DNA of 64,000 bases from Dehalococcoidia bacterium. Its GTDB lineage: Bacteria > Chloroflexota > Dehalococcoidia > Lucifugimonadales > JAGWBF01. Location of the stretch: the NCBI GenBank assembly GCA_965261965.1, contig OZ253489.1:3365131-3429130 (forward strand), read 5' to 3'. Positions within the stretch are counted from its first letter, which is position 1. Every line of letters starts with the position of its first letter. Positions 22,737 through 63,544 of this stretch are shown in pieces. Position numbers and translations under genes: made by a program. The notes beneath the pieces are model-generated. The model did no database searches. It was not told the origin of the DNA and saw nothing but the letters and a program-made list of their open reading frames with translations.

Positions 22737-22743
22737 GTTCCGG

Positions 22744-23061: not shown

Positions 23062-23329
23062 GTCTATCCTCCATCGTGAAAAGCTGGTTGAAGTCGTCTA
23101 CGCCGAGGACCTTTTGCATCCGGCGGCGGATGCGTCCGGAGGGCGAGCGCTCCCCGTTGACCAGCATCGACATGTACCCCGGGCTGACCCCGGTCTCCCT
23201 GGCGAGCCAATTCTGGGAGCGGTTCAGCGTGGTGAGCCGCTTCCAGAGGGCCGCCGTGTCGAGCCGGACAACGTTCCGTCCTGCGCGCCTCCGGTGGCCT
23301 TTCTTTTTGTGAATATTTTCCGAACTCAT
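23048..23329 (-). CDS. XRE-family HTH protein
   Basis: SQNWLARETGVSPGYMSMLVNGERSPS; paralog at 61536-61820. Confidence 0.8.
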   Translation of the reverse strand: MSSENIHKKKGHRRRAGRNVVRLDTAALWKRLTTLNRSQNWLARETGVSPGYMSMLVNGERSPSGRIRRRMQKVLGVDDFNQLFTMEDRHDQH

Positions 23330-23349
23330 GGCGTTCCGTTTCCAATCGT

Positions 23350-31300: not shown

Positions 31301-34300
31301 CAGGATCGCGTCCTGCACCAGCTGCGTGCGGTCGCAGATGCCGGGCGTCGGCGTCACCGGACCCGCCTCCGCCGCGTCGCCGCCGCCCGCGGTGTTCACC
31401 GCGCGGAGCTCGAAGGTGTGGGCCTCCTCGTTGGTGAGCCCTGTCACCGTGAACGAGTCCTCGTTCGTCTCGTCCGGCCCGCTGTCCGCAATCGCCGTCC
31501 AGGTCATGGGATAGTCCGCGTCCGTCTTGTACCGGAACTCGTGGCCCGTCACTCCCGAATCCAACGCCACTGCTTTCCAGGCGAGCGTCACCTGCGTGTC
31601 GCCCACTTTCGCGGTGAAGTTGGTCGGCGCGTCCGGGGGCGCGGTGCCGTTGACTTGGAGAAAGAAGGCGGAGCCCCGGTTAGTCCAGCTCGTGGCCGTA
31701 CGTCCACGATACAGGCCCGTATTGGCGATGGTCCAACCGGCCGTGGAGGTCGCGTCTTCGCTATTCGCATTCGTGCTCATCCAATTCCTATTACCTGTTA
31801 GGTCGTAATCCGCCAAGACTACATAGGTGTTACCCGCCTCGAGCGTTGCGCTCGCAGGGGCAGTGAAGCTCGCCGCGACTTCGGCTGTCACGCTCGCCGG
31901 ATTGGTCAAGGTATACAGGGAACTGTCCGGATGGCCCGACGAATCGGCGGACCAGACGCTGACGGTCAGCGAGCCGATATTCGTGGACGAAATGTCTAGG
32001 GAGACGAGAATCTCGATCGAGGTGAGCGTGTAGTTGCCGCCGCCGCTGGGGACCGAAAAGCCCTGCGCTGCCAGCCAAGTGTCATTTATGTTACTACCGG
32101 GGCCGCTGTCGGCCTGGCCCATATTGCTCACCAGCACGTTGGTCGGGGTCGGCGGCGCCTCCGCTGTTTGCGAGCCGTCCACCTTGTGGCCCGACCGCTG
32201 GGTGCGGACGGGATAGGCGAGCGGGGCGTCGGCGCTGGTCCCCGTGAACTGGATCGCATCGTCCGCATCGAGACCCACCGGGCCCTTCACGGTGCTGAAG
32301 TCCGTCTCTCCGCCGAGCTGGTAAATGCCGTTACCGTCCATGTCGGTCGACAGCACGGTGTAGCCGAAGACCAGCTCGGCCGTGCCGCTGCCCGACTCGT
32401 ACGCCGCATTCACGTAGTTAGAACCCCCCGAGTTGGCGAGCGAGAACGTGTAAACCGGGTCCCCGGTCACGTCCACTGCTGCGTTGAAGGTCACCGTGAA
32501 CTGGATCGTCTCATCCGCCCCGTAGGTGTCCGTCTCCAGCATCGGCGTCGACGTCACCTCCACCAAGACGATCGAACGCCCGCCGTCCACTCTGTGGCCG
32601 CCCAGCGTGTTGAGCGCGCTATGGATGAGGTTCGCCTTCACGCCCGTGTCCACACTCGTGATCGTGCCGGCCTGGGCGTTCGACATGCGGTCGCCGACCA
32701 GCGTCCGGTCCTGGTCCCCGATCCAGATGCCGTCGTCGTCGGCGTCCGCGGCCAGCACGGTGTAGCCGAACACCAGCGTCGTCGTGCCCGAACCGCGCAG
32801 CAGCGCCGCGCGCTTGGCTCCATCGACGGACAGCACGAAGTCCGTGTCGCTCGTGGCGTTCACCGCCTCGGTGAAGGTCACCGAGACCTCGATGGTCTCG
32901 CCCACCCCGTAGGTGTGCGTCGTCGACCCGTCCGACGAGGTCAGCAGCGGCGTCGACGTCACCGCCACGTCGGTGATCGTCGGCGGCGTCTCCTCGCGCA
33001 TCCGCAGCGTGACTTCGCTCTCCGACGACCAGTCTAGGCCGGTGCTGGCCCATTCGTAGGTCAAGTTAGAAACGCTGAACGCGAACGTGTCGCTGTTGCC
33101 GTCGATATGCAGCACCAGCTTTGCCTTGTCGGCATCGGTGAGCGCGCTGGCCAGACTGATAGTCAAGACGCCGGCGGTGCTGCCCGCTCCAGTATGAACA
33201 GCACCAATCGTGTAATCGTTCGATCCGACACTGAACGTGGTGTCGGACAGGGCGCCTACGTTTGAAGTGAATCCGTATCCAACAATGCCAAACCCTATGA
33301 AGTCGACCGCCTCCACCGTGACCACGCCGCACCAGAGATCGCCGGTGTTCAGGGTGCAGGTCGGGGCCGCCCGGGTCACCGTGACCGTGTAGGTCTCGGT
33401 GGCGTTACCGTCCTCGGCCGTCACCTTCACCTTGATGACGTTGTCGCCCACCGCCAGCGTCACCTGATGGCCGTCCACCCCGGTGTCCGCGTCGTCGATC
33501 GTCGCGTCGTCCCCGTCCAGATAGGCAACCGACGCGCCGGAATCGGTCGTCTCCGCCGTCACCGTCACCTCGGCGACGGCGCTCGCCACCATCGCCGTGT
33601 AGTCGGTGGTGCCCGACGCGAAGGTCACCAGGTCCGTGCCGCCGGCGGTCACCGTCAGATCGCTCAGCGTCGCGTCCGTGGAGAGCGTTGCCGCCCGCCG
33701 CAGACGCAGCGTGACGTTGGGGCCGCCGTCGGACCAGGTCAGATCGGAATCGGCCCAAAAGTAGCCGTGGCCAGTGGGATATGCGGTGGCCTCGCTCACC
33801 TTGAACGTCTTGCTGCCCACATCAAACTCCAGGGTGTTCACGTCATCAGTCGGAAAACTCTTGTCGAGTGTTATCGCCAACGTCCCCGCCCGGGCGCCGC
33901 TCAGGACGAGCAAAGAAGGAATCGTGTAGGTGTCCGACTCGATTGTGATCGTCTGGTCCCCGTTGTTGTCGGTCAGGGCGCCTACATCGGTGTCGGTTTC
34001 GGTTTCGGCAGCCACAAATCCCACTCCGTTACTGCTCGTCCCAACCGTGACCACCCCGCACCAGAGGTCGCCGGTGTTCAGCGTGCAGGTGGTGTCCGCC
34101 GTGTCGTCGTTGGTGATGGTGATCTTCGCCGTCGTGTCCGAAATCACGGCGTTCGTCGCGTTCGACAGCGTCACCGTGAAGGTCTCGTCGTCCTCGACGA
34201 TCTCGTCGTTGACCATCCCGACCGGTTGGCTAACCCTAATGTCTCCCGGATTGAAGGTCAGCGTCCCCGAAGTCGCCGTGAAGTCCGCGGGCGATTCCGC

Positions 34301-39320: not shown

Positions 39321-39412
39321 CGGGTAGGGCTGATTCGAATAGGTAACGCCGTGGAGTGCGGTCTCGTTCTCTGGCTTGCCCTATTGGAAATCCAATTGAT
39401 CAGAGGGTCCAA

Positions 39413-42400
39413 GTGTCCATTCAGATAGACTACAACGACCCCCGGTACGCCCAGGCCGCCGCCGAGATTCTGCGGCGGCACGACAGTGGCGAGCCCGAGG
39501 CGAACATCACCAGCGCGGTTCGTGATTTCCTCATCATCACGGGTCTCGTGAGGGCCGATGAGACCGCGGAGGAGAACCCGCCCGCACAAGGTTCGCGCCG
39601 CGCCGTAGACCTTGCCGCCCTCGACACCTTCATCGAGTTCAAACGCCGGATCGGGACCGCGGGAGGCTTCAACCCGAATCCCGAGTACGTCCAGCAACTC
39701 GACGACTACCTGGAGCAGTCAGAGAAGCAGGGACGGATGCGCATGGGCATCCTCACGGACGGCAAGCGATGGCTGCTGCGCTGGCCCAACGCCGGGCCGG
39801 TCAGGACGGCCCTGCCTTATGCCTACACATTGGAGGACGCAGACCGCTGGATTACCCTCTTCGAGTGGCTTCGCGACCATGCCCTCTCCGCAGAGGGAGA
39901 CAAGCAGCCGTCCCGCTCCGCCATCGCACAGCACTTCGGCCCAACGGCCCCATCGTATGAGCGGGACATAGCGGCCCTCAATGCTCTCTACGTCCGGCAC
40001 ACCGAATCCAGCACCATCAGGGTCAAGAGGCAGTTGTGGGAGAACCTGCTTACGGCCGCCCTGGGCGAGATTGCTAGGTCCAGCGCTCAACTGGACGACC
40101 TGTTCGTCCGACATACCTACCTAAGCGCTGTCATCGGCATGGTGGTCCAAGCGTCCTTCGGCGGCGACATCAGGCGCTTGGCGGAGAATGATCCGGCGGA
40201 CCTGCTCCTTGGCCGCGACTTTCGAAGCAAGACCGGTCTTCAGGGGGTCGTGGAGTCGGACTTCTTCGCGTGGCCCACTGAGGTGGGAGGAATGCCCCTG
40301 CTGACAACCCTGGCCCGGCGCATAGCGAGGTTCGACTGGCAGAAGGCTCCCAATGACGTCGCGGCCATCCTCTACGAGACCGTCATTCCGCCCGATGAGC
40401 GGCGTCAGCTGGGAGAGTACTACACCCCGGACTGGCTGGCGCGGACCATCGTGCGGGAGGTGGTGACCGAACCCCTCGACCAGTACGTCCTTGACCCGGC
40501 CTGCGGGTCAGGAACCTTCGTCGCCGAGGCGGTCAGCCACTTCATTGAGGCCGCAAATACTACCGACCTCGATTCCAAAGAGGTGTTGGAGTGGCTGCGC
40601 TTTTCCGTTGCCGGTATCGACATTCACCCAGTGGCGGTGCACCTTGCCAGGGCCGCATGGGTGTTGGCGGCGCAGCCTGCGATAAAGGCTGCGGTCGAGG
40701 ACGGCTTCGCAGCGAACATCACCGTTCCTGTCTACCTCGGAGACGCCCTCCAGCTCCGATTTCGCACCGGCGATATGTTCGCGGAACACAACGTAACCGT
40801 CCAGGTAGAGGATGAGGAAAACACGGAGTTGGTCTTTCCCGTGAGTCTGGTGGAGCAGGCAGAGACCTTTGACGCTCTGATGAGCGACGTTGCAGAGGCC
40901 ATTGAGAAGGGCGACGACCCCACCTTGGCCCTCGACGACAATCAGATAACAGGCTCGGGGCAGCGGCAGACCCTGGGGGAGACCATCTCCACTATGCAGC
41001 GGTTGCACGCCGAGGGCCGCAATCACATTTGGGCATACTACACCCGCAATCTGGTGCGGCCAGTGGCCCTGTCTCGCAGCAAGGTGGACGTGATCGTCGG
41101 CAACCCGCCGTGGCTGAACTACAACCAGACGGTTAGCACGCTGCGAACGGAATTGGAGAGGCAAAGCAGAAGCACCTACGGAATCTGGGCGGGTGGCCGG
41201 TACGCCACGCATCAGGACGTGGCTGGGCTGTTCTTTGCTCGCAGCGTCGACCTGTACCTGAAGGACGGCGGGGTTATTGCCATGGTGATGCCCCACAGCG
41301 CCTTGCAGGCGGGCCAATACACCAAGTGGCGTGGCGGTGCGTGGCGGGCCGAACCAAGCGGCAGGGGAAAAAATCGCGCTCCGGTCCGCGTCCTGACGGT
41401 TGACTTCGGCTACAAGACGGCCTGGGATTTGGAACGACTGGAACCCAACACCTTCTTCCCCGTTCCGGCGTCGGTGGCGTTTGCCAGACGCAGCGGCGAG
41501 GATGGCAAGGCGACTCCTCTGGCTGGCGAAGTGGAGCGGTGGCTGGGCATTGCGGGGGCGACTGATGTTCACCGGACGCGCGTGTCGATCACTGACACCT
41601 CGGTTGGCGGCGATTCACCCTACGCTGGCTACTCCCGACAGGGGGCTTCAATTGTTCCTCGCTGTCTGTTCTTCGTGGAGGAGACCACGAATCTCACAAT
41701 CGTTCAGGCCGGACAGACGGTCACCGTGAATCCGCGTCGAGGCTCTCAGGACAAGGAGCCGTGGAGGAGCCTCGACTTGTTCGCCATATCGGAGCAGACG
41801 GTTGAGGCTCCCCATGTGTTCGACGTTCATCTGGGAGAGACAATCGTTCCTTACGCAACGCTCGACCCGCTACGGGCGGCTTTGCCATTGAGACGAGGTG
41901 AGTTCCGAGTTCCATCTGCCGACGACGGCGTGGGCGGAATTCGCTTGGGCGGATTGAGTCAGAGGATGCGGAACCGATGGCGGATCGTCAGCAGCGTGTG
42001 GAACGAGAATCGGGCGGCGGCCAACAAGATGGGTTTGCTGGGACAGTTGGACTACTACGGCAAAGCTCTCGTCTCAGCTTGAATGGAGGCAGGACCCCGG
42101 GAATAGGCCGGTGCGAGTGGCGTATAACCAGTCAGGAGCGCCGACGGCCGCGCTAATTCAGGGCAATGAGTCGCTGGTAGATTACACGCTATTCTGGATA
42201 ACTTGCTGCGATATTCAGGAAGCCAACTATCTTCTAGCCATTATCAATAGCCAAGCTCTGTATGAAGCCGTGGCTTCATTGATGCCCAAGGGCCAGTTCG
42301 GTGCGCGCCACTTGGAAAAACACTTGTGGAAGCTGCCCATCCCGGAGTTCGACGCCGAGGATTCGTTACACGCCGTCGTATCCGAGGCTGGCAGAGTGGC

Positions 42401-45309: not shown

Positions 45310-48449
<3,140 letters not shown>

Positions 48450-48453
<4 letters not shown>

Positions 48454-48962
48454 TTCGTCCAGTCCACAACTCCAGCGATCGCCAGAATAATCATAACTGC
48501 CAAGACCACGTGTAGCACGGCAAACAGGATGGGTATCCAACGTTCTATGGTCGTCCCTGCCCGATAGGTATTTCCTTTCCCCTCCTGCGCCAAATGCCAC
48601 TCATACTTGTACAACGCTGCCGGCAAGTGCTGCTCGAGCTCGTGAATCACCTTGAACTTGATGCGGTTCAGGTCGGCGTGGGACTTGATGATCAGATACC
48701 AGAGCAATGAGACGGGAATCCCTATAACAGGGATAAGCAAAGTCCAGTAGCCTTGGCCGAAGTTTGCCGACTGTACGCCGTACAGCGCAACAAGCGCGGC
48801 GTTGAGGGTCAGCAAATAGCGATTTGATGCGACACGCCGTCCACTGACGTTCTCGGCAGATTGCACGTAGAGCTTGTACTGCTCCAATAGGTCTGAACCG
48901 AAAGTGTCACCGTAGGACTCTTTAGTATTGTTAATCAGATGTGTATCAGAATGGCACGACAT
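48450..48962 (-). CDS. Small membrane protein (2-3 TM), candidate effector of the adjacent TIR protein
   Basis: [18 protein letters not shown]...NRYLLTLN, hydrophobic segments; 6 nt from the TIR stop and coupled to hsdR. Confidence 0.7.
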
Positions 48963-48968
48963 GCGCAG

Positions 48969-49358
48969 CTACCTTTGTCCAGCAATCAGCTTCCTCAGAT
49001 TCTCCCAGGTCCAGTTGTATATCTTGTCTGAACTACGGGCCATGCGTGGCTTAGTGCATGTCTTGTTAGGACGCCCCTTCAACAGGAAATACGGCTTTCT
49101 TTCCTCCTGGGTGATGGTCAACTCAGCAGCAACACCCGTGGCATCGTGAGTATGCTCTCCACAGATTACGATCGTGAGGTCAGTTCTACGTATGCGGTCC
49201 CGCACCTTGACCTTCCAATTGCCCGTCAACGCCTCTTGGAGCGACCAGTCTGCGATTTCAAACGGTGAGTCAGGATTCCTAGCCTGACCCTTCAAGGCGT
49301 CTCTGAGCTCTTCGTCATGGTCGAAATCAAAGCTGATGAACGCTCGCTTCATTGCCAT
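48969..49358 (-). CDS. Stand-alone TIR-like domain protein (MTH538/DUF1863, ThsB-like)
   Basis: KRAFISFDFDHD, DWS..E, IVICGEHT, GVAAELTI (catalytic-type Glu). Confidence 0.8.
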   Translation of the reverse strand: MAMKRAFISFDFDHDEELRDALKGQARNPDSPFEIADWSLQEALTGNWKVKVRDRIRRTDLTIVICGEHTHDATGVAAELTITQEERKPYFLLKGRPNKTCTKPRMARSSDKIYNWTWENLRKLIAGQR

Positions 49359-49433
49359 TATCTTGTTGCCTCCCAAGTTTCGTTGTGTTTCGATCTGTGG
49401 AAGCCGTCATGTTTCGCCTATCTCTGTACCCAC

Positions 49434-49502
49434 CTACCAGCAGAGGGCTGCGAGCCAGTCTAGGGCAGCGGAGTCAACATCGGCTTCGGTGATGCTGGTC
49501 AT
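49434..49502 (-). pseudogene. Duplicated 5' stub of hsdR (MTSITEADVDSAALDWLAALCW*)
   Basis: Matches the hsdR start [22 protein letters not shown] at DNA and protein level; its ATG abuts the kwaB stop. Confidence 0.8.
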
Positions 49503-50423
49503 CTAAGTCCCGCTTCCTCCCACCCTAGTGCGGCTCGACGCCTTGTACCGCTCCGTTACGCCCGCTACTAGGCGGCTCACATATCTGCGCCGGTCGACTA
49601 CTTCAAGGAAATCCAGTATCTGTCCATCGGGCACAACCAGCTCTCCTGCTACATCCGTGAGCGAGATACCTCCTGCTTCACAGTCCGACTCGAGCGCTGA
49701 CTTGTCCAGATTATTCCCGTAACCATCAGTGCGAATCGAAGCCAAGAGGCTCGCTGCGCGTGAATGACTGGTAGCGTACTCCTCGATTGCGGACCACTCC
49801 ACATACCCAATTTGAGACTGAATTGCCTGGATATTCCGTGGAACGGCTTCCACAATTGCTTCCTCAATCTGGCCCAGCAGTTTGAAGCTGGTTGGATGGA
49901 TGATGTGAATTGATCCCGAGTCCACAACTACATCAAAGTCGGCATTAAGTTGAAAAATAGGGTTCTCAACAATGCGAAGTGCGTCGGTGCCTAATGACAG
50001 TATGCGATTCTGCTTGTTGAGGGCACCTTTGAACTGTGTTGAACGTCGTATAGCAGTTAGTTGCCTACCCTGGTCATCATGAAATCGTGCGAAATAGCAG
50101 AAAGACTTTGTTATCCACTCCAGATAGTCACTTGCGATTGACAAATTGGGGGTCTGATGAAGCGTCTTGAGGCGGACCGCCAAATCGTCATTGATCGACA
50201 GCGTCAAGTATTCTTCGCCTGCATATTTCTCGGCAGGATCGAAAGTGGATGGATCTTCCGCACTATCCTCCATCCTTTGGCAGGTCGCTGCCACCATCTC
50301 TCCGAGTGTTCGTTGTACTGCTACATGGGCAGGCACCGCAACAAAGACTCTATCGGAACCAATTTGACGGCCTACTCCGAACTCCGTTACTTCGATCTTC
50401 TCAATGTCGAAATTGAGATTCAT
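49503..50423 (-). CDS. kwaB: Kiwa KwaB (DUF4868-like)
   Basis: Soluble ~300-aa protein with FQLNADFDVVV...IHIIHPTSF pattern, coupled to a 4-TM gene inside a type I R-M operon. Confidence 0.75.
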   Translation of the reverse strand: MNLNFDIEKIEVTEFGVGRQIGSDRVFVAVPAHVAVQRTLGEMVAATCQRMEDSAEDPSTFDPAEKYAGEEYLTLSINDDLAVRLKTLHQTPNLSIASDYLEWITKSFCYFARFHDDQGRQLTAIRRSTQFKGALNKQNRILSLGTDALRIVENPIFQLNADFDVVVDSGSIHIIHPTSFKLLGQIEEAIVEAVPRNIQAIQSQIGYVEWSAIEEYATSHSRAASLLASIRTDGYGNNLDKSALESDCEAGGISLTDVAGELVVPDGQILDFLEVVDRRRYVSRLVAGVTERYKASSRTRVGGSGT

Positions 50424-50991
50424 TTGTTCTTCTCCAAGTAGACCATGTTGCTAATTCGATAGGCTATCACTTGTTCATTTGGTTGCACCATCGAACGACG
50501 AGTAATCAAAGCGAAGTTAGTCATATTGGTATACTCACTGTCTCCAACAGGAGATAGTACATTCAATACACGGTATCCGCGTACTGCGAAGAGTATGTTC
50601 ATATAATGATAGTTCAGATGCCAAAACAGAAATACTATGAACACTAACGCAGCTACAAGTGCGGAGAATTCCCTCCAACTATCAACGTTCTGCCGATAGA
50701 ATGGAAGGAGGATAGCAAAAAGATAGACGAGGACATGGCCCCTATGGTCCTCCGTCCGCCCAATCACAAGTGAACGTATGTCGTTCTGTCTTTTCGCGAG
50801 CAACTCTCGAAAGAGCAGAAATGCTGTCGGTAGTACAGCCATCACCAGACAGCCAGTAACGAAATACAAGGCAGGGATCAAGTTTGTGCCCCGGATACCC
50901 CACAGAATGAACAACGGAGACATGCTGCTCAAGACCATTATGAATCGAGCTAGCTTTAGCCCTTCGGCGTGTGGGCCTTGGTCAAAGGGAT

Positions 50992-50995
<4 letters not shown>
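50420..50995 (-). CDS. kwaA: Kiwa KwaA (multi-pass membrane protein)
   Basis: SSMSPLFILW, YLFAILLPF, YMNILFAVRGYRV motifs; four hydrophobic segments. Confidence 0.75.
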
Positions 50996-52550
<1,555 letters not shown>

Positions 52551-54256
52551 GGCTGTCTCAGAAGTCGGAACTGGCAATGGAACCGGGTTAGGTGTACCTT
52601 CGAAGCGACATCAATTGGGGAGAGATTGAGATGCCGCTTCGAGACATGGACCGGGAGCAAATGTGGCTGTTGCCGCCCACCCTTGACGAACTGCTGCCGT
52701 TGGACCATCCGGCCCGATTCGTGGCCGAGTTTGTGGATGCGTTGGATAGGGCGGCCTGGGCGAAGATGGGCGTAGGGATAGAAGGAGACCCGCTAGGAGC
52801 GCCCGCCTACCATCCGCGGGCGCTGTTGAGCGTGTGGCTGTACGGCTTCATGACCAACGTGCGGTCGTGCCGGAAGTTGGAGGCGGCCTGCCGGGACCAG
52901 ATTCCGTACCTGTGGTTGACCGGGTGGCAGCATCCCGACCACAACACCCTGTGGCGATTCTACCAGGGGCACCGTCAAGGCATGAGAGAGCTGTTCAAGC
53001 GCACGGTTCGGACGGCGGTGTCCCTGGAGTTGGTGGACCTGGCGATGCAGGCGGTGGACGGAACGAAGATGGCCGCCAACGCGGCGGCGAGATGGACCTA
53101 CACCGGAGAGCAGTTGCACCAATTGCTGGCTAGGGTGGAGAAATCCATTGCCGACTTGGAGGCCCAGAACGAAGGGGGCGAAGACGGCGATCCAGTTCAT
53201 CTTCCAGAGAAGTTGTCCGACCGCAAGACGTTGCGGCAGCGGGTGAGGCAAGCAATGGAGGAACTGCCAAGCCGGGAGCTTCCCAGGCGCAGTCAGCACA
53301 AGCACCCCCGTCGCATCAATCTGACCGATAGAGACGCTAGGTCGATGAAGACTGCTCAGGGGTTTGTTCTCAGCTACAACGCCCAAGCCATGGTCTCCCC
53401 TCTGGCCACCGGCGAGGGAGTAACCGGCATGATGATCACCGCCGTGGACGTGGTGGATGAAGTCAATGACCTTGCCCGTCTGACCCCGATGGTGGAACAG
53501 GCCGAGGAGGTTACGGGGGTAAGGGTTCCGACGACCCTGGCCGACGCGGGTTACTTCGGCGGCAGGCACCTGGAAGAATGCGCCCGGAGAGGCCAGCAGG
53601 TGGTGATGCCCGATCCGAAACAGCGGTCCATTAAGGAGGACCCGTACCACAAGGACCAGTTCACCTACGACGAGGACAACGACTGCTACTACTGCCCTAG
53701 GGGACAAACCCTGCCCTTCCTTCGAAACAGTCGTAAGAGAGGGGAGTGGGTACGGATATACCGGGCCTCTCGGTTAGTCTGTAAGGAGTGTCCAGCCCTC
53801 GGAGTCTGTACCAAGAATCGCCGCAAGGGACGCGCCTTGGAACTGGGGCCTTACGATGCAGTATCGCGCCGACATCGTGCCTGGATGGAGACGGAGGAAG
53901 CCAAGAGGGTGTACAAGTTGAGAAAGCAGTTAGTCGAACCGGTCTTCGGAATCATCAAGGAACAACAGGGAGCGCGGAGGTTCCTGTTGCGCGGCCTTGC
54001 CAACGTGTCGGCCGAATGGACGGCGTTGGCCACAGCATTCAACTTGCGCACCCTCTGGAAGGTATGGAACTCCCGATCCCGCGCCTCTGCTGAATTACCC
54101 TACGGTCTGGAGCCTTGCCCCGCTTTCTGACCGTTACACAGGTCTCGAGAACGATCCTTACTCTCACCGCTTCACTACCCCCGTAGTGCCTCCGCATGGT
54201 TCGTTAGTCGAATCCATGCGGAGGCACTACGTCATTCAACCTCTCTGAGACAGGCT
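52551..54256 (+). mobile_element. IS1182-family insertion sequence
   Basis: Terminal inverted repeats AGGCTGTCTCAGA / TCTGAGACAGGCT (1 mismatch) around a single transposase; no clear target duplication. Confidence 0.85.
52631..54130 (+). CDS. IS1182-family DDE transposase
   Basis: LLPPTLDELLPLDHPARF, PAYHP, PDHNTL, VDGTK, YNAQ, ADAGY, VEPVFGIIK. Confidence 0.93.
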   Translation: MPLRDMDREQMWLLPPTLDELLPLDHPARFVAEFVDALDRAAWAKMGVGIEGDPLGAPAYHPRALLSVWLYGFMTNVRSCRKLEAACRDQIPYLWLTGWQHPDHNTLWRFYQGHRQGMRELFKRTVRTAVSLELVDLAMQAVDGTKMAANAAARWTYTGEQLHQLLARVEKSIADLEAQNEGGEDGDPVHLPEKLSDRKTLRQRVRQAMEELPSRELPRRSQHKHPRRINLTDRDARSMKTAQGFVLSYNAQAMVSPLATGEGVTGMMITAVDVVDEVNDLARLTPMVEQAEEVTGVRVPTTLADAGYFGGRHLEECARRGQQVVMPDPKQRSIKEDPYHKDQFTYDEDNDCYYCPRGQTLPFLRNSRKRGEWVRIYRASRLVCKECPALGVCTKNRRKGRALELGPYDAVSRRHRAWMETEEAKRVYKLRKQLVEPVFGIIKEQQGARRFLLRGLANVSAEWTALATAFNLRTLWKVWNSRSRASAELPYGLEPCPAF

Positions 54257-54858: not shown

Positions 54859-55864
54859 TTAGCAGAAGGGCAGGCCGCCAAGGCCATAATAGGAGGTAAG
54901 CTGGTCTTCCAGGCTGCTTGGCACGCACCCGCTCAAGGCGTTCTCGATGAGGGCCAGAATTCTCAGGTTGGAGAGGCTGCCCAGCTCCGCCGGTAGCTCT
55001 CCGCTCAAGTCGTTCTCGGTGAGCCACAGCTGTGTCAGGTTGGAGAGGCTGCCCAGCTCCGGCGGTATCTCCCCGCTCAAGGCGTTGACGCTGAGGTGGA
55101 GCTCTGTCAGGTTGGAGAGGTTGCCCAGCTCCGCCGGTAGCTCTCCGCTCAAGTCGTTGCCGCCGAGGGTCAGCAATTGCAGGTTGGAGAGGCTGCCCAG
55201 CTCCGCCGGTATCTCCCCGCTCAAGGCGTTGCTGGAGAGGGTCAGCAATTGCAGGTTGGAGAGGCTGCCCAGCTCCGCCGGTATCTCCCCGCTCAAGGCG
55301 TTGTTGTCGAGGACCAGCCATTCCAGGTTGGAGAGGCTGCCCAGTTCCGCCGGTATCTCGCCACTCAACTGGTTCTCGCCGAGCCACAGTTGTATCAGGT
55401 TGGAGAGACTGCCCAACTCCGCCGGTATCTCCCCGCTCAAGCCGTTGCCGGTGGAGGTCAGCAATATAACGCGCCCGTCGTCGTTGGTGACGACGCCCGC
55501 CCATTCACCGAGGGGGGCGTCGCTCAGCCAGTTATCACTGAACGTCCAGTTCTCACCGTCTGTTGCGTTGTAGAGGGCAACCAGCACTTCCCGGTCCGTT
55601 TCGGCGGAGCCGGAGGCCGCGGGCGGCACTGTCGTAGCCGTAGGTACAGGCGTATCGGTGGCAGTGGGCGCGTCCCCTGCCCCTGGCGTGGAAGGCGTCC
55701 GTGCGGGGGTGGCCGGCGTCTCCGTTGGGGGAGACGCCGGCCGGTCGGGGCCGGTCCCGGCGTCCGGCTCATCAGAGCCGCAGGCCGCCAGCGCTGCCGT
55801 AAGGGCCAGCGCAAGGACAACGCCTCAACAGGGTTATGTATCTTGTCGTGCGTGTACGGGTCGT
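54859..55864 (-). pseudogene. Plant-type LRR lipoprotein with a damaged 5' end (ACG start, +1 frameshift in the signal peptide)
   Basis: About 8 repeats of 24 aa, LSGEIPAELGSLSNL (72-bp DNA repeats). Upstream in frame: Pro/Thr linker and lipobox LAAC, interrupted by TGA at ~55825. GGGAGG RBS precedes ACG at 55864. Confidence 0.7.
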
Positions 55865-56909: not shown

Positions 56910-58961
56910 TTATCTTCGCCGGGTCGCAGTTATTGTCGGGACCAGGTCACTTTGGCAGAGGCTTATGGCTACGCCGCCGAATACCTTGCCTGCGCCAGGC
57001 TGGCGACCCTCTCCATTGAGGCGTTGCGAGCCGCCCGTGGTACTGGCCGTCTCAAGATCAGGGCGGGCAAAGTGTGTGGGCGCAGCCCCTTCGTTGTGGA
57101 CGGGCCAACCGCGAATAGCGCGTAAGAGAGCGCGATGGCTGGCGCGTTGGAAGGGTGTTTTGCCTCTGCCGAGCGCCAGCCACTCGCCTGCACAAACGAA
57201 GAGACCCTGCCGTATCAGCAGGGGCTCGGCGACTTCGTACTGTACCAGGGGGGCTGCCCGGTGGAGCCTGGCTGGTCTCCCCACCGGGCGAAGCAGGGTA
57301 GATGGACGATTACACCGCCAAAGCGAAAGTAATGGTGAAGGTTCCTGTGAACCAATTGACACGCACTCAGGCTGAGGGGACTCAGGGTCAGGAGAATCAG
57401 GGTCTGAGGAATCATCGTCGATGGGTAAAGCCAGCGTGATGTCCACGTTGTTGTCCCTGTCGATAATGACCTCTTCCACGAGCATCTGGAGATAGTCGTG
57501 ACGCTCCTCGAGGGTCACCTCGTCCAGGCCCTGGCCGAACTCTCTCGCCCAGGTTAGGACCTCCTCCATCAGTCGCCGCTTTTCAGCTCCACTCGTCTCC
57601 TGAACCAGATAATCGTCCAGCTTCGCCCTGGCGCTCTCAAGCCGCTCGGTGATGAACCTACGCTGAAGGTCGAGTTGGGCCTCAGTGATCTTCCCAGACA
57701 CGAACAGCCTGATGGCGCGGTCCTCTTCCATCTGGATGCTCCGCAGGTCTCGCTCGGCCTGGGCGATCTCCTCCTCCATTCCGACGCCATCCTGAGAATC
57801 GAGGTCGGCGATACCGGCGACGATCAGATCGGGGTTCTGGAGTACCCGCTTCACCTCGCGCCATATCGGCTCCTCCAACTGCTCAGCCCGGATGTAGGGC
57901 TTCTCCCGGCAGCCCAGGCGCATACTCTGCATCCCGTTGCACATGTAGTAGCGGCGGGGAGTGGGCAGGTCGTAGGTGTAAGCCTTGCCCTTGCGAACGC
58001 TGGTGGTTGTCCAACTCGCCCTCGCATGGAAGTTGCGGCCGCACTCGCCGCATTTCAGAAGGTGCTGCAACAGGTAGACCACCTTGGTATTCCTCTTGGC
58101 TTTCGTGCCCCGCTGCTTCTTCAACTTCTGCGCCCGTTTCCAGGTCTCATCGTCGACCACCTGCGGGACCGGGATCTCAATCCAGGTGTCCTTGGGTTGG
58201 TCGTAGACCTTCATACCGTCCTCGGTAGAGACGTGGCGGTACCTTCCGTAGACCCAGGTGCCCGTGTAGGTGGCATTCCCCAAAATGTGGTGCACGCGGG
58301 ACTGAAGCCACAGCATCTTGCCGGACTGCGTGGGGACCCCCTCGTCGGTCAGCCGCACGGCAATCGAGTAGGACCCCATCCGCTCATCGACGTACATGCG
58401 GAAGATGCGGCGGACGACCTCCGCCTGCTCCTCAACCACCTCAAACCTGCCGTCGTCCCCGATGCGGTATCCGTAGGGGACGCCGCCGGTGGGCACCCGT
58501 CCCTGCTTGGCAGTCCCCCGCTTGCCCATAGTGGACCGCTCCCGGAAGTTGTCCAACTCTATCTTGCCGATGGCCGCCATGAGTCCGAAGGTCTTCATGT
58601 CGATGGCGTCCAAGACGGCTTCGAGCCGAATCTGATGGGCCTCGACGACCTCCATCAGGGCGGCGGCGGGGTACATGCCCCTGCTGAGGCGGTCGGACTT
58701 CCAGCACACGATGGTATCGAAGCGTCCGCGTCTGGCGTCGGCCAGCATCCGCTGGAACTCGGGTCGTTTCTTCGACCAGCCCCTGCCCACTTCCTGGTAG
58801 CGGGCGGTGATGGTCAGTCCCTTGCTCTCGCAGTAGGCTTCCATGTCGCCCGTCTGCTCGGAGATGGAGGTCTTGTCCTCCCCGTCCTGGCTCTTGTCCG
58901 AGACGCGGGCGTAGATGGCCGCCCGGTTCGCCTCCGTCTTTCTATCGGTGATTCTCGCCAT
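56910..58961 (-). CDS. Large serine recombinase LSR4 (distinct subfamily) with ~140 aa of apparent read-through tail
   Basis: AAIYARVS, WKSDRLSR, CGECG...YYMC...C, coiled coil; recombinase-like sequence ends ~57340. Confidence 0.9.
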   Translation of the reverse strand: MARITDRKTEANRAAIYARVSDKSQDGEDKTSISEQTGDMEAYCESKGLTITARYQEVGRGWSKKRPEFQRMLADARRGRFDTIVCWKSDRLSRGMYPAAALMEVVEAHQIRLEAVLDAIDMKTFGLMAAIGKIELDNFRERSTMGKRGTAKQGRVPTGGVPYGYRIGDDGRFEVVEEQAEVVRRIFRMYVDERMGSYSIAVRLTDEGVPTQSGKMLWLQSRVHHILGNATYTGTWVYGRYRHVSTEDGMKVYDQPKDTWIEIPVPQVVDDETWKRAQKLKKQRGTKAKRNTKVVYLLQHLLKCGECGRNFHARASWTTTSVRKGKAYTYDLPTPRRYYMCNGMQSMRLGCREKPYIRAEQLEEPIWREVKRVLQNPDLIVAGIADLDSQDGVGMEEEIAQAERDLRSIQMEEDRAIRLFVSGKITEAQLDLQRRFITERLESARAKLDDYLVQETSGAEKRRLMEEVLTWAREFGQGLDEVTLEERHDYLQMLVEEVIIDRDNNVDITLALPIDDDSSDPDSPDPESPQPECVSIGSQEPSPLLSLWRCNRPSTLLRPVGRPARLHRAAPLVQYEVAEPLLIRQGLFVCAGEWLALGRGKTPFQRASHRALLRAIRGWPVHNEGAAPTHFARPDLETASTTGGSQRLNGEGRQPGAGKVFGGVAISLCQSDLVPTITATRRR

Positions 58962-58990
58962 TGCTGCCTCCTTTCCGACTCCCTGAAATC

Positions 58991-59022
58991 AAAAAGACCC
59001 GCCTCCTGTCGGGAGCGGGTCT
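58991..59022 (-). terminator. Intrinsic terminator ~30 nt upstream of the LSR4 start
   Basis: AGACCCGCTCC-CGACA-GGAGGCGGGTCT followed by TTTTT on the minus strand. Confidence 0.7.
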
Positions 59023-59176
59023 GCGAGTAGTACAATGCTACTGCATCACCTGTCCAATCAGGTGGCGCCACGGCCCGGGGTGTTTGCTGCATCGCCGGGC
59101 CAACTTTCGCTCCCATGATACCGCGATTGGGGGGCCGGCGTCAAAGCGCGTCACCCGCCAGTAGGTCAGTCATTCT

Positions 59177-59806
59177 CTACCACCCCGCTGGCTTGGTTAT
59201 AGTTCCGATCCCGTCAGTCAACGTGTCGGGAAGCTGGCTCCGTCTCAGGTGGCTCTTCCACAGGCGCTTGACGTAGGTCGCGGCGTCCGCCAGCTCCCTC
59301 GGACTGCTGTTCCTGGGGTCCGGGTTGACCAGCGTGACCCGAAGCCCCAGGTCGTCCCGAACGTAGCGCATCGCCCCCGCAAAGTCCGCGTCATTGGACA
59401 CGACGACCGCCTGCTCGTACTCCCCGTTGAACCCATCGACCAGGAGACGGGTGGCGAGGTTCACGTCCGACCCCTTCTCCTCCGAGTCCCTCACCAGGAC
59501 GTAAGACGGCAGCCCCGTCACAGGCTCCGCCAGCGGACGGCGCTTGACGCCGGACCGGAAGACGCCGTAGTACGTGTCGAATCCAGGCAGCGTCGCCAGG
59601 GCTCTCAGGTAGACGAGCTGGCGACGTGGCTGATTGGGATTACCGGGACGGGCATCAAGCCGGGCGGTGAAGTAGCAGACCCGGTTGATCGAGTCTTGGG
59701 AAAAGAGCGTCTCGGCCAGCCTCCGGAGGTCCAGCCACCTGTAGGGCGTGTCCTTCAGGGTGCGGTAGTAGAGATTGAAGCCGTCGATGTAGACGTTGGT
59801 GATCAA
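59177..59806 (-). CDS. NYN-domain (LabA/DUF88, PIN-fold) protein
   Basis: VYIDGFNLYY, EEKGSDVNLA, VVSNDADF. Confidence 0.9.
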   Translation of the reverse strand: MITNVYIDGFNLYYRTLKDTPYRWLDLRRLAETLFSQDSINRVCYFTARLDARPGNPNQPRRQLVYLRALATLPGFDTYYGVFRSGVKRRPLAEPVTGLPSYVLVRDSEEKGSDVNLATRLLVDGFNGEYEQAVVVSNDADFAGAMRYVRDDLGLRVTLVNPDPRNSSPRELADAATYVKRLWKSHLRRSQLPDTLTDGIGTITKPAGW

Positions 59807-59987
59807 TCGCTACTCCCATACAAAGACAGAGACCGCCCCGGAGGACGGTCTCGACCCTACCGGCGAAGCGATAGGGGTGGTAGAAGAAAAATACCACGAG
59901 CGGCGGCGGCTGTCAACGCTCGATGCCGGTGATAGCCCGTGCAGCTGTGGGTTGCCCAGACCTCTGTCGTTCGACTTCACCCCCACC

Positions 59988-60827
59988 TCACACCCCACAA
60001 TGTCCCTCGCACTCGTTTCCGAACCCGTCTCGCAGCCCGTCCTCTCCTAGGTCCACCTCATCGAGGGCGACCGCCTCGGCCAGGGGCATCCGCAGGGAGT
60101 GCAGGTACGGCGTCTTGTCCAGTGACAGCCCCTCCCGCAATCTGGCGTCGATCTCCACCGCCTCGGCGAACATCTCCGGCCACCTGCGCTTCGTCTCCAC
60201 CCATCTGTGGCGGGACTGGAAGGGGCAGGCGACGCAGGCCGAGCGTTCCAGGGGCCTGTCGTAACGCTTCTTCCACCAGTTCAGGCAGTCGCTGCGGGAC
60301 ATCCCCTTCTCGATGAGCGGGTAACGGTTCGTCATCCACCGGTCGCGGGAGGTCCTCATGCGTATGGCCTCGTCGGTGGAGATACCGAGCCACAGCTCGA
60401 CGGTGGTTCCGGCGGGGACGCGCTGCCGGGGTCTCAGGCCCAGCAATTCCCTTATCCTGCGTCTGATGGGCCTGATCTTGTAGTTGTCGGTGCACTGCCG
60501 CCTGCCGATGCCGTCGCCCTCCCCGTCGCCTCCCTTCAGGTAGACGGGTATGTCCACGTAGTTTCGGGAGTCCGAGTGGTTGGTGAGGGCCTTCACATCC
60601 TCGCGGAGGCTGCGTCCGTTGTCCACGACGTACAGGGGGAAGCTCAGCCGGTCTTTCAGCCACGCCAGGTGCTCGTAGATGCTGGGCGGCTCCCAGCGGG
60701 TGTCGGCGAATATGGCGCAGTCGGGGATGCGGTCGAATGCCCCCTCGTTTGCCATGAGCGCCATGACGGAGGACTGGACGCCTCCGCCCAGGCTGATGAC
60801 GGTAAGAGACGGTTCGGGCTTCATCAT
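59988..60827 (-). CDS. PAPS-reductase-like PP-loop protein with Cys clusters (phage/ICE type)
   Basis: ISLGGGVQS PP-loop, FADT, CT..YKI.PI, GISTDE, SACVACPF, ECEGHC. Confidence 0.75.
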   Translation of the reverse strand: MMKPEPSLTVISLGGGVQSSVMALMANEGAFDRIPDCAIFADTRWEPPSIYEHLAWLKDRLSFPLYVVDNGRSLREDVKALTNHSDSRNYVDIPVYLKGGDGEGDGIGRRQCTDNYKIRPIRRRIRELLGLRPRQRVPAGTTVELWLGISTDEAIRMRTSRDRWMTNRYPLIEKGMSRSDCLNWWKKRYDRPLERSACVACPFQSRHRWVETKRRWPEMFAEAVEIDARLREGLSLDKTPYLHSLRMPLAEAVALDEVDLGEDGLRDGFGNECEGHCGV

Positions 60828-61060
60828 GCCTCCGCCTCGGTGGTGTCATCAGCTTGCGGGTCGCTCGGGGGAGTGTCCTCGCCGTGCGCGGCCTGCCTGT
60901 CCCTGGCGGCGTGCTTGATCATCAGGGTGATGATGCGGCGCAAGCGGTCCCGGGCGTCGGGTCCTGGTCTGGAAGAGACCCTGATGACGCCTATCTCAAA
61001 GGCGTCGCCACGGGGCTTCCGCCGCCTGTTCTGTTCATTCTTTCCGGTGGTATCTTTCAT
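60824..61060 (-). CDS. Small basic hypothetical protein (positional counterpart of 22325-22582)
   Basis: MKDTTGK start; follows the triple-hairpin element. Confidence 0.55.
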   Translation of the reverse strand: MKDTTGKNEQNRRRKPRGDAFEIGVIRVSSRPGPDARDRLRRIITLMIKHAARDRQAAHGEDTPPSDPQADDTTEAEA

Positions 61061-61072
61061 ATTGCGTAGTCG

Positions 61073-61213
61073 CAGCGGCGTCTGGTGGGCCGCTGGCCTC
61101 TCGACACGGGATTGCGGCTGGGCCGCCGGCGCCGACGGAACGGGCGAGCGCCGGCGGCATCCAGCCGTCTCAGGCCCCGCCGTGCCGCCGTTGCGCCTGC
61201 GCCCGGCGGGGCC
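61073..61213. other. Conserved non-coding triple stem-loop element, copy B
   Basis: Stems at 61073-61095, 61122-61158 and 61173-61213. Confidence 0.7.
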
Positions 61214-61219
61214 GCTGGT

Positions 61220-61549
61220 CTAGCTGTGCTCCTTGAAGAAGCTCATCTGGAAGCTCTCGGTCACGAGGATCGCCATGCCTCCGGGCATCCGAGCCGCGAA
61301 GCGGAAGAGGGCGTGCATGGCCCAGCCGCGGGGCTCGACGCCGTTGCGCCACCGGTGGACCAGCTTGGGGTCCACGCCGATGGCCCTGGCGAAGGCGGCC
61401 CACGTGAGGCCGCTGACCTCGTGCAGCCGTTCGAGGCGCTTGGGGAAGTCCTCCGCCAGCACGGCGGCCTGGAGGGCCAGGTCCTGTTCCTCGTCGAAGG
61501 TCTGTTCCGTGGTCCCGTCGAAACGGGACGAATCGTTATGGTTCGTCAT
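61220..61549 (-). CDS. XRE-family HTH protein
   Basis: Paralog of 22744-23061 (LTWAAFARAIGVDPKLVHRW). Confidence 0.8.
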   Translation of the reverse strand: MTNHNDSSRFDGTTEQTFDEEQDLALQAAVLAEDFPKRLERLHEVSGLTWAAFARAIGVDPKLVHRWRNGVEPRGWAMHALFRFAARMPGGMAILVTESFQMSFFKEHS

Positions 61550-61820
61550 CTCTATCCTCCATAGTGAAAAGTTGGTCGAAGTCGTCGAAACCCAGGGCCT
61601 TGAGCATCCGGCGGCGAATGCGACCGGAGGGTGTGCGCCCCGCGTTGACCAGCATCGAGATGTAGCCGGGGCTGACCCCGACCTCCCTGGCGAGCCAGTT
61701 CTGGGAGCGGTTCAGCAGAGTGAGCCGTTCCCATAGGGCCGCCGTGTTGAGCCGGACAACGGTCCGTCCACCACGCCTCCGGGGGCCTTTCTTCTTGTTG
61801 TGGTCGTCTTGCGAACGCAT
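61536..61820 (-). CDS. XRE-family HTH protein
   Basis: Paralog of 23048-23329 (SQNWLAREVGVSPGYISMLVN). Confidence 0.8.
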   Translation of the reverse strand: MRSQDDHNKKKGPRRRGGRTVVRLNTAALWERLTLLNRSQNWLAREVGVSPGYISMLVNAGRTPSGRIRRRMLKALGFDDFDQLFTMEDRDDEP

Positions 61821-61888
61821 GGCTCTTCGTCTCCTCTGGGGGAAGGGAGCGCGAGCCGTCGCGCCGCTTCCCCGATGTCAGTCGTTGG

Positions 61889-63544
61889 TCATTGCGGCGG
61901 CATGGCCTGGGGGGACTGCCAGTCGCCCGGGGCGCGCCATGCGCGTCCCAGCGGCCCCATCTGCTCGATGGCGGCCCTGTGCGACACCCACAGGGGCACC
62001 GTCACGCCCTTCGCCTGTATCTCGTCCCGCGCCAGGCGCAGGAAGTGGGTCTGGACGATCTCGTCGTCGAAGACGATGAGGACGGAGGGCCGCGTGCCGT
62101 GGTCGTCGGTGGGCCGGTGAGAGGAGAAGTAGCGCAGATAGGGGGCGAGGCGCTCCGACATGGTCGAGGGCCGCACGGCCCTTCGCTCCCACTCCAGCAG
62201 GAAGGGCCATGTGGTCTCGCCCTTTCTGAGGACGCCGAAGGCGTCGGGGTTGACCGAGCGCATCCCGTCGCCGTGCTTGAAGTGTCGTGAGGCCCTGCGG
62301 GGCGGGTCGACCTGGGAGACCTCCCAATCCAGGAGTCCCGCCTGCACGGTCATGGCCGCAAGGAAGGAGTGGACGGCTGCGGTGTGCTCGACGTTCCTGA
62401 GCAGCTGGCGGCTCCTCGCGCCGGTCACGTTGTCCCAGACGAATGGGGTGCCGGGGAACAGTGGAGCGGCGCTCCACCGCTTCTTCGCCACGGCGACCGA
62501 GGTGCGGTCCCTGCGGGCCAGGAGGGCCAGGGCCCGGTCGGTGAGGGCCATGCGCCCGCTTCCGGCGATGGGCCGGGTGACGAGGCGGAACCCTTCGAGG
62601 GGGGTGACGATCTGGGAGGCCCTGGGGACCGAGATGGCCATCAGTCCGGCCAGGTCCGTCAAGGTGATCCAGGGCCAGTCGGATATGAGGTCGAGGGCGC
62701 GCTTCTCGGCGGGCTTGAGGGTGGCGGGCAGCAGATAGTCGGAGACCTTCCACCCCGGACCCTCGACGGAGAGGTCGGCTGGGAGCGAGGCCACCTGTGG
62801 CTCGTCCTCCTCGGGAAAGAGGCTTCCCTTCTCTATCCGGTCGAGGACAGAGCGCAGCTCGACGGAGGCGTTGACCGCGGGCGGGCTCCACACCGGGTCG
62901 TCCGGCGACGCCGCGACCGCCTCGCGTTCGAGGGCGAGATAGAATGGAACGGGGGCGCCGGCCAGCGTCCTGCGGACGTGCCTGAGCCGCACGTCGTCGG
63001 CCATCAGCACGAGAACGGCTCCGGGGAGGGGCCCCTGGCGCAGCCTCCACATCCGGTTGGAAAAGCCGGTCCTGTCGGCGGTGAGCCCCTGCCTGACGAT
63101 GCCGACGGTGCGGCCGCCGGGAAGCTCGACGGCGGCGTCCAGGGTCGAGGCCCTGTACCACCGGAACCGTATGGGGTATGCGACGCCGGAGACGGCGACC
63201 GCCAGCCGGTAGATCGCGGCGAGGGAGTCGAGCCGTCCCATCAAGTTGCGCCGCCACTCGGCGGATACGGGGCGGTCGCGTACGAGCTCGTCCAGGGAGG
63301 TCTCCTCCTCCTCGGCCAGCCGCCGGAGCCCGGCGGCTGTGAGGTGGAACCTCTGGGTCGAGGAGGGAAAGAGGGGGGTGGCGTGGGGCACGGCGGCGCA
63401 GAAGCCGCCCGAGTCCAGCTTGTCGACGGCCTCGTGGACCGCGGCCTTCGACCAGCCGGTGACGGCCACCATCTCCGTCCGGTCGAGGAAGGGCATTCCC
63501 GCCAGGGCTCGGAGGGTCTGGGCTTCACATCCTTCAGTTCTCAC
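61889..63544 (-). CDS. Replication-relaxation family protein, internally duplicated (putative relaxase)
   Basis: Paralog of 23350-25002; VNPDAFG...FLLEWERRA. Confidence 0.72.
   Translation of the reverse strand: MRTEGCEAQTLRALAGMPFLDRTEMVAVTGWSKAAVHEAVDKLDSGGFCAAVPHATPLFPSSTQRFHLTAAGLRRLAEEEETSLDELVRDRPVSAEWRRNLMGRLDSLAAIYRLAVAVSGVAYPIRFRWYRASTLDAAVELPGGRTVGIVRQGLTADRTGFSNRMWRLRQGPLPGAVLVLMADDVRLRHVRRTLAGAPVPFYLALEREAVAASPDDPVWSPPAVNASVELRSVLDRIEKGSLFPEEDEPQVASLPADLSVEGPGWKVSDYLLPATLKPAEKRALDLISDWPWITLTDLAGLMAISVPRASQIVTPLEGFRLVTRPIAGSGRMALTDRALALLARRDRTSVAVAKKRWSAAPLFPGTPFVWDNVTGARSRQLLRNVEHTAAVHSFLAAMTVQAGLLDWEVSQVDPPRRASRHFKHGDGMRSVNPDAFGVLRKGETTWPFLLEWERRAVRPSTMSERLAPYLRYFSSHRPTDDHGTRPSVLIVFDDEIVQTHFLRLARDEIQAKGVTVPLWVSHRAAIEQMGPLGRAWRAPGDWQSPQAMPPQ

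Follow-up and report, generated by a model that had tools for sequence, protein, structure and literature searches.

The 64,000-nucleotide (nt) stretch of DNA analysed here (the window; contig OZ253489.1 of the Dehalococcoidia bacterium assembly GCA_965261965.1, positions 3,365,131 to 3,429,130) carries on its minus strand a two-gene cassette that pairs a short ThsB-like Toll/interleukin-1 receptor (TIR) protein with a small membrane protein of the 8xMP family. The TIR gene (48969–49358) encodes 129 amino acids (aa) beginning MAMKRAF, with its ATG at 49358 and its TAG stop at 48971–48969, and a GGGAGG Shine-Dalgarno ribosome-binding site (49369–49374, minus strand) lies 10 nt before the start codon. 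A 6-nt spacer (CTGCGC, 48963–48968, minus strand) separates the TIR stop from the start of the 8xMP gene (48450–48962, minus strand; ATG at 48962, TGA at 48452–48450), whose 170-aa product is a putative signal-gated membrane effector. The TGA of the 8xMP gene overlaps, as ATGA (48450–48453), the ATG (48453–48451) of hsdR, which encodes the restriction subunit of a type I restriction-modification (R-M) system. The ribosome-binding site, the spacer and the overlap were read directly from the sequence. An earlier sequence-only reading of this stretch had described a TIR plus membrane protein cassette with these coordinates, gene sizes and 6-nt spacing, all of which hold. What it had overlooked is the genomic context: a type I restriction operon encloses the cassette, which overlaps the hsdR start codon and sits next to a Kiwa system. 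The two genes are not chance open reading frames (ORFs), since at E ≤ 1e-3 they have 2,488 (TIR) and 1,093 (8xMP) homologues and both are covered by sponge metatranscriptome contigs at up to approximately 99% identity, although such libraries can contain DNA.

The TIR protein matches the Pfam family PF08937 (ThsB_TIR, formerly the MTH538/DUF1863 TIR-like domain) with an E-value of 1.9e-08 and 35.1 bits against a cut-off of 21.2. Its AlphaFold2 (AF2) model (predicted local distance difference test score, pLDDT, 83.5) has a flavodoxin-like β-α pattern. Foldseek comparison of the model yielded PDB 8FZ9, a TIR protein of Bacillus cereus, as the best match (E 7e-09, template modelling score 0.71), followed by EcThsB (8WCF), the ThsB–Tad3 complex (9B7D) and BcThsB (6LHY); 8FZ9 is also the nearest solved relative by sequence (phmmer E 1.8e-4). 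We aligned 21 diverse TIRs, among them ThsBs already studied by experiment and TIRs that accompany distant 8xMP proteins. The sole invariant column corresponds to Glu79 of the window TIR (codon GAG at 49124–49122), which aligns with the Glu of 'YEI' in BcThsB and of 'WEI' in the type IV Thoeris TIR of Pseudomonas sp. 1-7 (PsTIR). The window TIR is 35% identical to this validated protein (E 2e-20), which produces the cyclic ADP-ribose (cADPR) isomer N7-cADPR upon infection and loses its defence function when E79 is changed to Q (10.1101/2024.10.24.620036). By profile, fold and alignment, then, this is a ThsB-type TIR with an aligned catalytic Glu, as expected of a Thoeris component, and the earlier description of a stand-alone MTH538-type TIR with a conserved Glu was accurate. 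Neither Pfam nor the model reveals an additional sensor domain in the 129-aa protein.

The 170-aa protein belongs to Pfam PF24838, the 'Octameric membrane protein family (8xMP)' (E 1.2e-36, 126 bits against a cut-off of 30), with a match that covers profile positions 1–135 of 136. PF24838 is the only Pfam family that it matches at E ≤ 1, and all 58 aligned relatives match it as well. An exhaustive search at E ≤ 1e-3 yielded 2,447 clusters at 50% identity, making 8xMP a large family. The AF2 monomer is predicted with high confidence (pLDDT 90.9, predicted template modelling score 0.81) and consists of long helices at residues 21–67, 71–110 and 136–162 with a short helix at 117–127. Hydropathy is strongly hydrophobic at 72–94 and 138–170, while 46–67 is amphipathic, so the '2–3 transmembrane (TM)' description given from sequence alone is apt for what the model shows as a three-helix protein. 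The predicted layout comprises a cytoplasmic N-terminal helix, an amphipathic TM1 (46–67), TM2 (73–93), a cytoplasmic region of about 50 aa and TM3 (144–165). TM1 bears a polar stripe formed by the conserved residues Asn47, Asn54 and Gly62 at intervals of one to two helical turns. Invariant or near-invariant charged residues, namely R42 and R43 (codons at 48839–48834), K102, E110, E121 (together with W122) and E140, cluster where the helices exit the membrane, on the presumed cytoplasmic side.

The sequence-only reading had taken the membrane partner for an atypical effector, a pore-type effector or sensor that lacks a recognisable ligand-binding domain, and had proposed a look-up in defence databases. 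The partner matches no model in PADLOC 2.0 and none in NCBIfam, and a search of PDB sequences returned noise only. It also lies outside the validated Thoeris effector families SIR2-SLOG, Macro-TM, SLOG, caspase, DUF2270 and DUF6650, and likewise outside SLATT, CMP hydrolase, TIR-SLOG, ion channel and HIT. It is no unrecognisable orphan, however, being a clear member of PF24838. We found no paper that explains the name 8xMP, PF24838 or octameric membrane protein. A weak SLATT_1 match was seen in two of the 58 family members (best E 0.0029) and a weak S_4TM match in one. At the level of sequence this hints at a distant kinship with the membrane effectors of Thoeris and of cyclic-oligonucleotide-based antiphage signalling systems (CBASS), although the SLATT signal is below significance across the family overall. 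Ten longer 8xMP-containing proteins were also checked for a natural fusion to a TIR domain (a 'Rosetta stone'); none carried one, while one has β-helix/NosD domains and another a weak CorA match.

Conservation of the pair, which had been suggested as a check on the original proposal, was assessed in 84 close loci: four contigs encoding an 86%-identical 8xMP protein and 80 species-representative genome loci with 8xMP proteins of 55–89% identity. A TIR ORF ends beside the 8xMP start in all 84, and in 72 of them the gap between the two genes is only −4 to +7 nt. The hosts are mostly Dehalococcoidia and other Chloroflexota, many from sponge metagenomes, and extend to Caldilineaceae, Latescibacterota, Binatia, Nitrospirales, Alpha-, Beta- and Gammaproteobacteria, Gemmatimonadota, Planctomycetota and the archaeon Methanothrix. 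Loci with more similar TIRs also have more similar 8xMP proteins, as shown by a Mantel test on the pairwise identities (r = 0.77; none of 999 permutations reached this value). In 10 of the 80 genome loci two tandem TIRs precede a single 8xMP gene; the presence of several ThsB genes per effector is a recognised Thoeris trait. These 80 loci were retrieved with a six-sequence alignment and are biased towards relatives of at least 55% identity, a bias that we countered with look-ups of three distant 8xMP members, 12 plasmid tblastn hits and a second TIR clade.

All three distant members (L085, L086 and L088; 33–35% identical) have a PF08937 TIR gene directly upstream, in contexts other than R-M operons. 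Among the 12 plasmid matches inspected, eight have a short TIR directly upstream (Haematospirillum, Synechococcus, Clostridium perfringens, Halorubrum, Polaromonas, Novosphingobium, Paenarthrobacter and Halobacterium). On a Rhizobium leguminosarum plasmid (L101; NZ_CP050092.1, 1131–5238), the 8xMP gene starts 2 nt after that of a 1215-aa TIR-NB-ARC-WD40 protein of the STAND (signal transduction ATPases with numerous domains) class; here the TIR feeding 8xMP appears to be fused to a sensor resembling nucleotide-binding leucine-rich repeat (NLR) proteins. Bare two-gene pairs with no R-M genes nearby are found in Vibrio, Sulfurospirillum and Paenibacillaceae. The Vibrio metoecus pair (L104; LCUE01000020.1, 4001–4935) stands amid small acetyltransferase, DUF3709 and DUF645 genes, a setting that resembles a Vibrio superintegron cassette array. 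Carriage by phages is rare, amounting to two viral contigs and one phage-collection record, CP014526, whose accession is that of the Haematospirillum plasmid. The 8xMP proteins partner with two TIR clades, recognisable by 'FISFD...DSPFE' (the clade of the window TIR) and 'YNLFISHSW', and each clade includes a validated type IV Thoeris TIR, from Pseudomonas sp. 1-7 and E. coli 328, respectively. TIR-8xMP is thus a tightly conserved two-gene module spread across many bacterial phyla and archaea, with the effector gene in the operon of the TIR and the pairing kept across genomes, as in Thoeris. With the pairing conserved, no PADLOC model matching the membrane partner and the TIR in a clade with an experimentally validated signal-producing ThsB, the suggestion of a candidate Thoeris-like system stands, and both of the computational checks proposed for it speak in its favour.

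Yirmiya et al. (bioRxiv 10.64898/2025.12.03.692087) surveyed the TIR operons of defence islands, discarding the TIRs of CBASS, Pycsar and prokaryotic Argonaute systems as NAD+-depleting effectors, and annotated 29 putative Thoeris types, of which types V–XI were validated. Seven of the 10 new TIR-effector configurations that they tested, selected by the same neighbourhood logic as used here, provided defence. One of their putative configurations, 'TIR + 3TM', was left untested and carries no type number (their Fig. 1C and Table S1); like the pair described here, it places a small three-TM protein after a short TIR of the ThsB type. Three of the 8xMP-adjoining TIRs (L085, L088 and L090) are 58–65% identical to '3TM' TIRs of Table S1, and that of Halorubrum lacusprofundi is 80% identical to the '3TM' TIR IMG 2508570778. 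On the basis of these identities, '3TM' is very probably 8xMP, an indirect equation given that Table S1 provides TIR sequences only. The pair therefore very probably falls within a class that is already catalogued, neither named nor tested, to which our analysis adds a family assignment and genomic context. A '3TM' protein in the CRISIS preprint (Guanyin GuyA) was also considered and proved unrelated to TIR systems.

The window TIR itself is nearest (57–60% identity) to three entries that Table S1 assigns to 'Caspase - Type IV'. Homologues 80–83% identical to one of these entries adjoin 8xMP without a nearby caspase in Vibrio metoecus, Sulfurospirillum and Paenibacillaceae. On a C. perfringens plasmid (L091; NZ_CP065633.1, 1501–3814), a caspase-TIR-8xMP-TIR cluster lies beside the cpb2 toxin gene region. 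Such an arrangement would explain the 'Caspase - Type IV' labelling, and it suggests that caspase and 8xMP effectors may share signals.

Comparison with characterized systems places the pair more precisely. Type IV Thoeris (TIR plus the caspase-like ThsE, signalling through N7-cADPR) has a homologous TIR of the same size with an aligned catalytic Glu, and its caspase gene occurs in one cluster with 8xMP on C. perfringens plasmids; the partner of the window TIR, however, is a membrane protein, and we found neither an adjoining caspase-like gene nor a peptidase C14 match. The nearest functional analogue is type V Thoeris (ThsB plus ThsF/DUF2270, with the signal 3'cADPR), which also combines a TIR with a small three-helix membrane effector, one that AlphaFold3 predicts as a ring-shaped homo-oligomer with charged (basic) pockets between protomers. 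It differs in its TIR clade and in its effector family: the 58 8xMP members matched 46 families, and DUF2270 (PF10028) is absent from the 25 of these that were listed. In type VII (SLATT effector, ThsH) and type II (Macro-TM effector) Thoeris, too, a TIR signal activates a membrane-disrupting effector, but the window 8xMP protein has no SLATT or Macro match. Outside Thoeris, the two-gene defence operon of the BcTir/Tpr system of Bacillus cereus (BcTir, 8FZ9) likewise encodes a short TIR that stands alone, whereas the partner of BcTir is a glycosidase-TPR protein rather than a membrane protein.

The operon that hosts the cassette runs hsdS-kwaA-kwaB-TIR-8xMP-hsdR, all on the minus strand. The hsdS gene (50992–52509) encodes the type I specificity subunit (Pfam Methylase_S; PADLOC Specificity_I 1.5e-94). 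It is followed by kwaA (50420–50995, 191 aa; PADLOC KwaA 3.4e-72) and kwaB (49503–50423, 306 aa; PADLOC KwaB 3.3e-105), so that both the KwaA membrane protein and KwaB (DUF4868) of a Kiwa system are present between hsdS and the TIR cassette. On the far side, hsdR (45310–48453) encodes a 1047-aa protein with the Pfam domains HSDR_N, SWI2_SNF2, ResIII and T1RH-like_C (PADLOC REase_I, E = 0). The direct neighbours of the pair are KwaB upstream and HsdR downstream, in agreement with the observation made from sequence alone that the pair has no SIR2, Macro, caspase or deoxyribosyltransferase gene beside it. A between-gene scan for sigma-70 promoters and terminators gave nothing above shuffled expectation, and the pair is probably co-transcribed with the type I R-M operon in the source genome. 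We did not find hsdM among the large ORFs of the window, and an insertion sequence (IS) element with a DUF772/DDE_Tnp_1_6 transposase (52592–54130, plus strand) lies directly upstream of hsdS. These two findings make the type I R-M system look incomplete, in contrast to the intact defence cassettes embedded in it. The odd N-terminal 60 aa of the hsdS ORF were considered as a nucleotidyltransferase remnant, an idea dropped for want of Pfam support. With Kiwa, type I R-M and CBASS genes in the same window, the cassette lies in a defence island.

The 5' end of hsdR is present twice. The true 5' end (48383–48453, minus strand) and a remnant located right after the KwaB stop (49432–49502, minus strand; MTSITEADVDSAALDWLAALCW*), identified by repeat search and alignment, form 71-nt direct repeats that are 80% identical and start 1049 nt apart, the second copy being broken by a stop codon. 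Because this second copy follows the KwaB stop, the TIR-8xMP pair constitutes a 1049-nt unit bracketed by direct repeats. An extra copy of the hsdR 5' end is found upstream of the 8xMP gene in 27 of the 80 related genome loci, in 17 cases no more than 300 nt ahead of the TIR, and 10 loci have three or more copies. A Latescibacterota locus (L058, 4312–6465) has two complete TIR-8xMP pairs in tandem, with an hsdR 5' remnant between them and hsdR following. In four metatranscriptome runs the contig depth peaks sharply over the hsdR 5' end (window 48404–48454), reaching approximately 100×, and no contig covers 49373–49700; such a profile is expected if the hsdR 5' sequence is common to many cassette variants in the community. 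The hsdS-KwaAB-TIR-8xMP-hsdR order recurs in three loci (L007, L008 and L067). In most loci the pair occurs without Kiwa, which indicates that Kiwa and TIR-8xMP are separate systems. The repeats suggest that cassettes are stacked through recombination at the start of hsdR, and we read the setting as accretion of cassettes at the conserved hsdR 5' end rather than as functional coupling, given that the pair also lives without R-M genes, that an IS element adjoins hsdS and that hsdM was not found in the window.

Our favoured explanation, to which we assign a probability of roughly 0.6, is that TIR-8xMP is a self-contained Thoeris-type abortive-infection module. Its observed base comprises the layout of the genes, the fold and conserved catalytic Glu of the TIR, the topology of the membrane protein, the obligate pairing across phyla and the location in a defence island; the signal, its binding, the pore and the defence itself are the parts that we infer. 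The 129-aa TIR, equivalent to ThsB, would sense phage infection and, by means of Glu79, turn NAD+ into a second messenger derived from ADP-ribose. This is most plausibly a cyclic ADP-ribose isomer such as N7-cADPR or else canonical cADPR, as suggested by the relatives of the window TIR. The messenger would bind the juxtamembrane cytoplasmic part of 8xMP (residues ~18–45 and 94–143), the region that holds R42, R43, K102, E110, E121, W122 and E140. 8xMP is envisaged as a homo-oligomeric three-helix membrane protein whose oligomer would be opened or disordered by the ligand; membrane integrity would then collapse and phage replication stop. This scheme for 8xMP mirrors, by analogy, what has been proposed for type V, type VII and type II Thoeris.

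Several observations weigh against this explanation. The identity of the signal is an extrapolation, since one and the same TIR cluster of Table S1 can comprise systems with different signals. No nucleotide-binding domain is recognised in 8xMP, and its model gave no significant structural match in the PDB (best Foldseek E-value 1.2). Three of the 12 plasmid-borne 8xMP homologues have no detectable TIR neighbour. BcTir (8FZ9), the closest solved relative of the window TIR, is reported to lack NADase activity in vitro. The literature that we searched yielded no experiment on any TIR-8xMP pair, and of the 10 configurations that Yirmiya et al. (10.64898/2025.12.03.692087) predicted in the same way and put to the test, three conferred no defence.

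Many bacterial TIRs are NAD+-depleting effectors, and the roles of the two proteins could conceivably be reversed: 8xMP would act as a membrane-embedded sensor or anchor responding to phage attachment, DNA injection or envelope stress, a role like the one suggested for KwaA in Kiwa, and would switch on the TIR, an effector that would then kill the cell through NAD+ depletion. The lack of an extra sensor domain in the TIR and of a known ligand-binding domain in 8xMP would fit such a scheme, as would the existence of membrane sensors in neighbouring systems such as Kiwa. Against this, equally short TIR-only proteins of the same clade both sense phage and make the signal in type IV Thoeris. The partner, moreover, varies within the same TIR clusters (caspase, SLATT, CMP hydrolase or 8xMP), which is how effectors behave, and the presence of several TIRs per single 8xMP fits an arrangement in which many sensors feed one effector. 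In Rhizobium it is the TIR-NB-ARC-WD40 STAND protein, a typical sensor, that lies upstream of 8xMP. We therefore consider reversed roles unlikely.

The position between hsdS and hsdR raises a different prospect. The gene prrC occupies this same position in EcoprrI, and TIR-8xMP could by analogy be a guard that is silenced by HsdMSR, or monitors it, and is set off once restriction has been disabled by an anti-restriction protein of a phage. Like PrrC, the pair is likely to be co-expressed with hsdR, although there is no sequence relationship between them. The association is frequent: an hsdS upstream and/or a long hsdR ORF downstream is found in 59 of the 80 related genome loci (both in 43), and in 23 the 8xMP gene shares an ATGA with an hsdR-type start, which lies within 30 nt in 11 more. 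The R-M-embedded subfamily is also unusually well conserved, at 76–98% identity across the top 120 matches. One could go further and regard this subfamily as a second line of defence, translationally coupled to hsdR, in which the TIR signal reaches an octameric pore when restriction is neutralized and the hsdR 5' repeats mark the dedicated exchange of guard cassettes. Both the guard and this extended version of it seem to us quite improbable. In other loci the hsdS-hsdR gap accommodates genes with no relation to the pair (HicAB, Kiwa or unknown ones) and so looks like a general insertion hotspot; the flanking hsdR 5' repeats point to recombinational hitch-hiking; the pair exists away from R-M genes in Vibrio, Sulfurospirillum and Paenibacillaceae, on plasmids and in archaea; and in the window itself the R-M system looks incomplete while the cassette is intact. 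A further, very improbable, explanation is that the two genes are independent neighbours, or form an addiction pair akin to a toxin–antitoxin (TA) module that stabilizes a mobile island with no diffusible signal. TA modules (HicAB, PIN, DUF433/DUF5615 and RelE) are indeed frequent neighbours, and the cassette travels on mobile DNA, both plasmids and integrative elements. Independence, however, is contradicted by adjacency in every close locus, by the coupling of start and stop codons and by the co-variation of both proteins. As for an addiction pair, the invariant catalytic Glu favours an enzymatic TIR over a simple protein antitoxin, and loci in which more than one TIR precedes a single 8xMP are at odds with a 1:1 TA stoichiometry. 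Taken together, the favoured model and its rivals leave a small part of the probability unassigned.

If the Thoeris-type explanation is correct, 8xMP would represent a large family of small ligand-gated membrane effectors, a still untested class of Thoeris effector that archaea share with bacteria. Knowing the ligand could yield a further receptor for N7-cADPR or cADPR, or reveal a new TIR-derived signal, and an 8xMP structure would be informative because the family has no solved structural relative. The pairing had already been flagged in the preprint, so the contribution made here is confirmation, a family assignment and context rather than a new kind of system. The arrangement bracketed by hsdR 5' repeats offers a concrete example of defence cassettes piling up at one operon position in sponge-symbiont Chloroflexota.

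Other features of the window were also noted. A type II CBASS-like operon (6141–9717, minus strand) encodes a patatin phospholipase (8806–9717), a SMODS/DncV-like cyclase (7695–8726) and a ThiF/E1-like protein (6141–7691). Two large Eco57I/MmeI-like N6-methylase proteins, resembling type IIG R-M enzymes, are encoded at 17133–20105 (minus strand, 990 aa) and 39356–42082 (plus strand, 908 aa). Repeated gene sets at 198–1955, 11971–15371, 20712–27599 and 56910–63544 comprise large serine recombinases (four copies), Replic_Relax/MarR proteins (three copies) and a TraG/TrwB-like coupling protein, and the window looks like several stacked integrative elements. It also encodes a 2409-aa protein with leucine-rich repeat (LRR), Calx-beta, cadherin, fn3 and PKD domains (28187–35416, minus strand) and a 256-aa LRR protein (54859–55629, minus strand). 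Such 'eukaryotic-like' repeat proteins are in keeping with the sponge-metagenome origin of many of the related loci and of the metatranscriptomes that carry the cassette.

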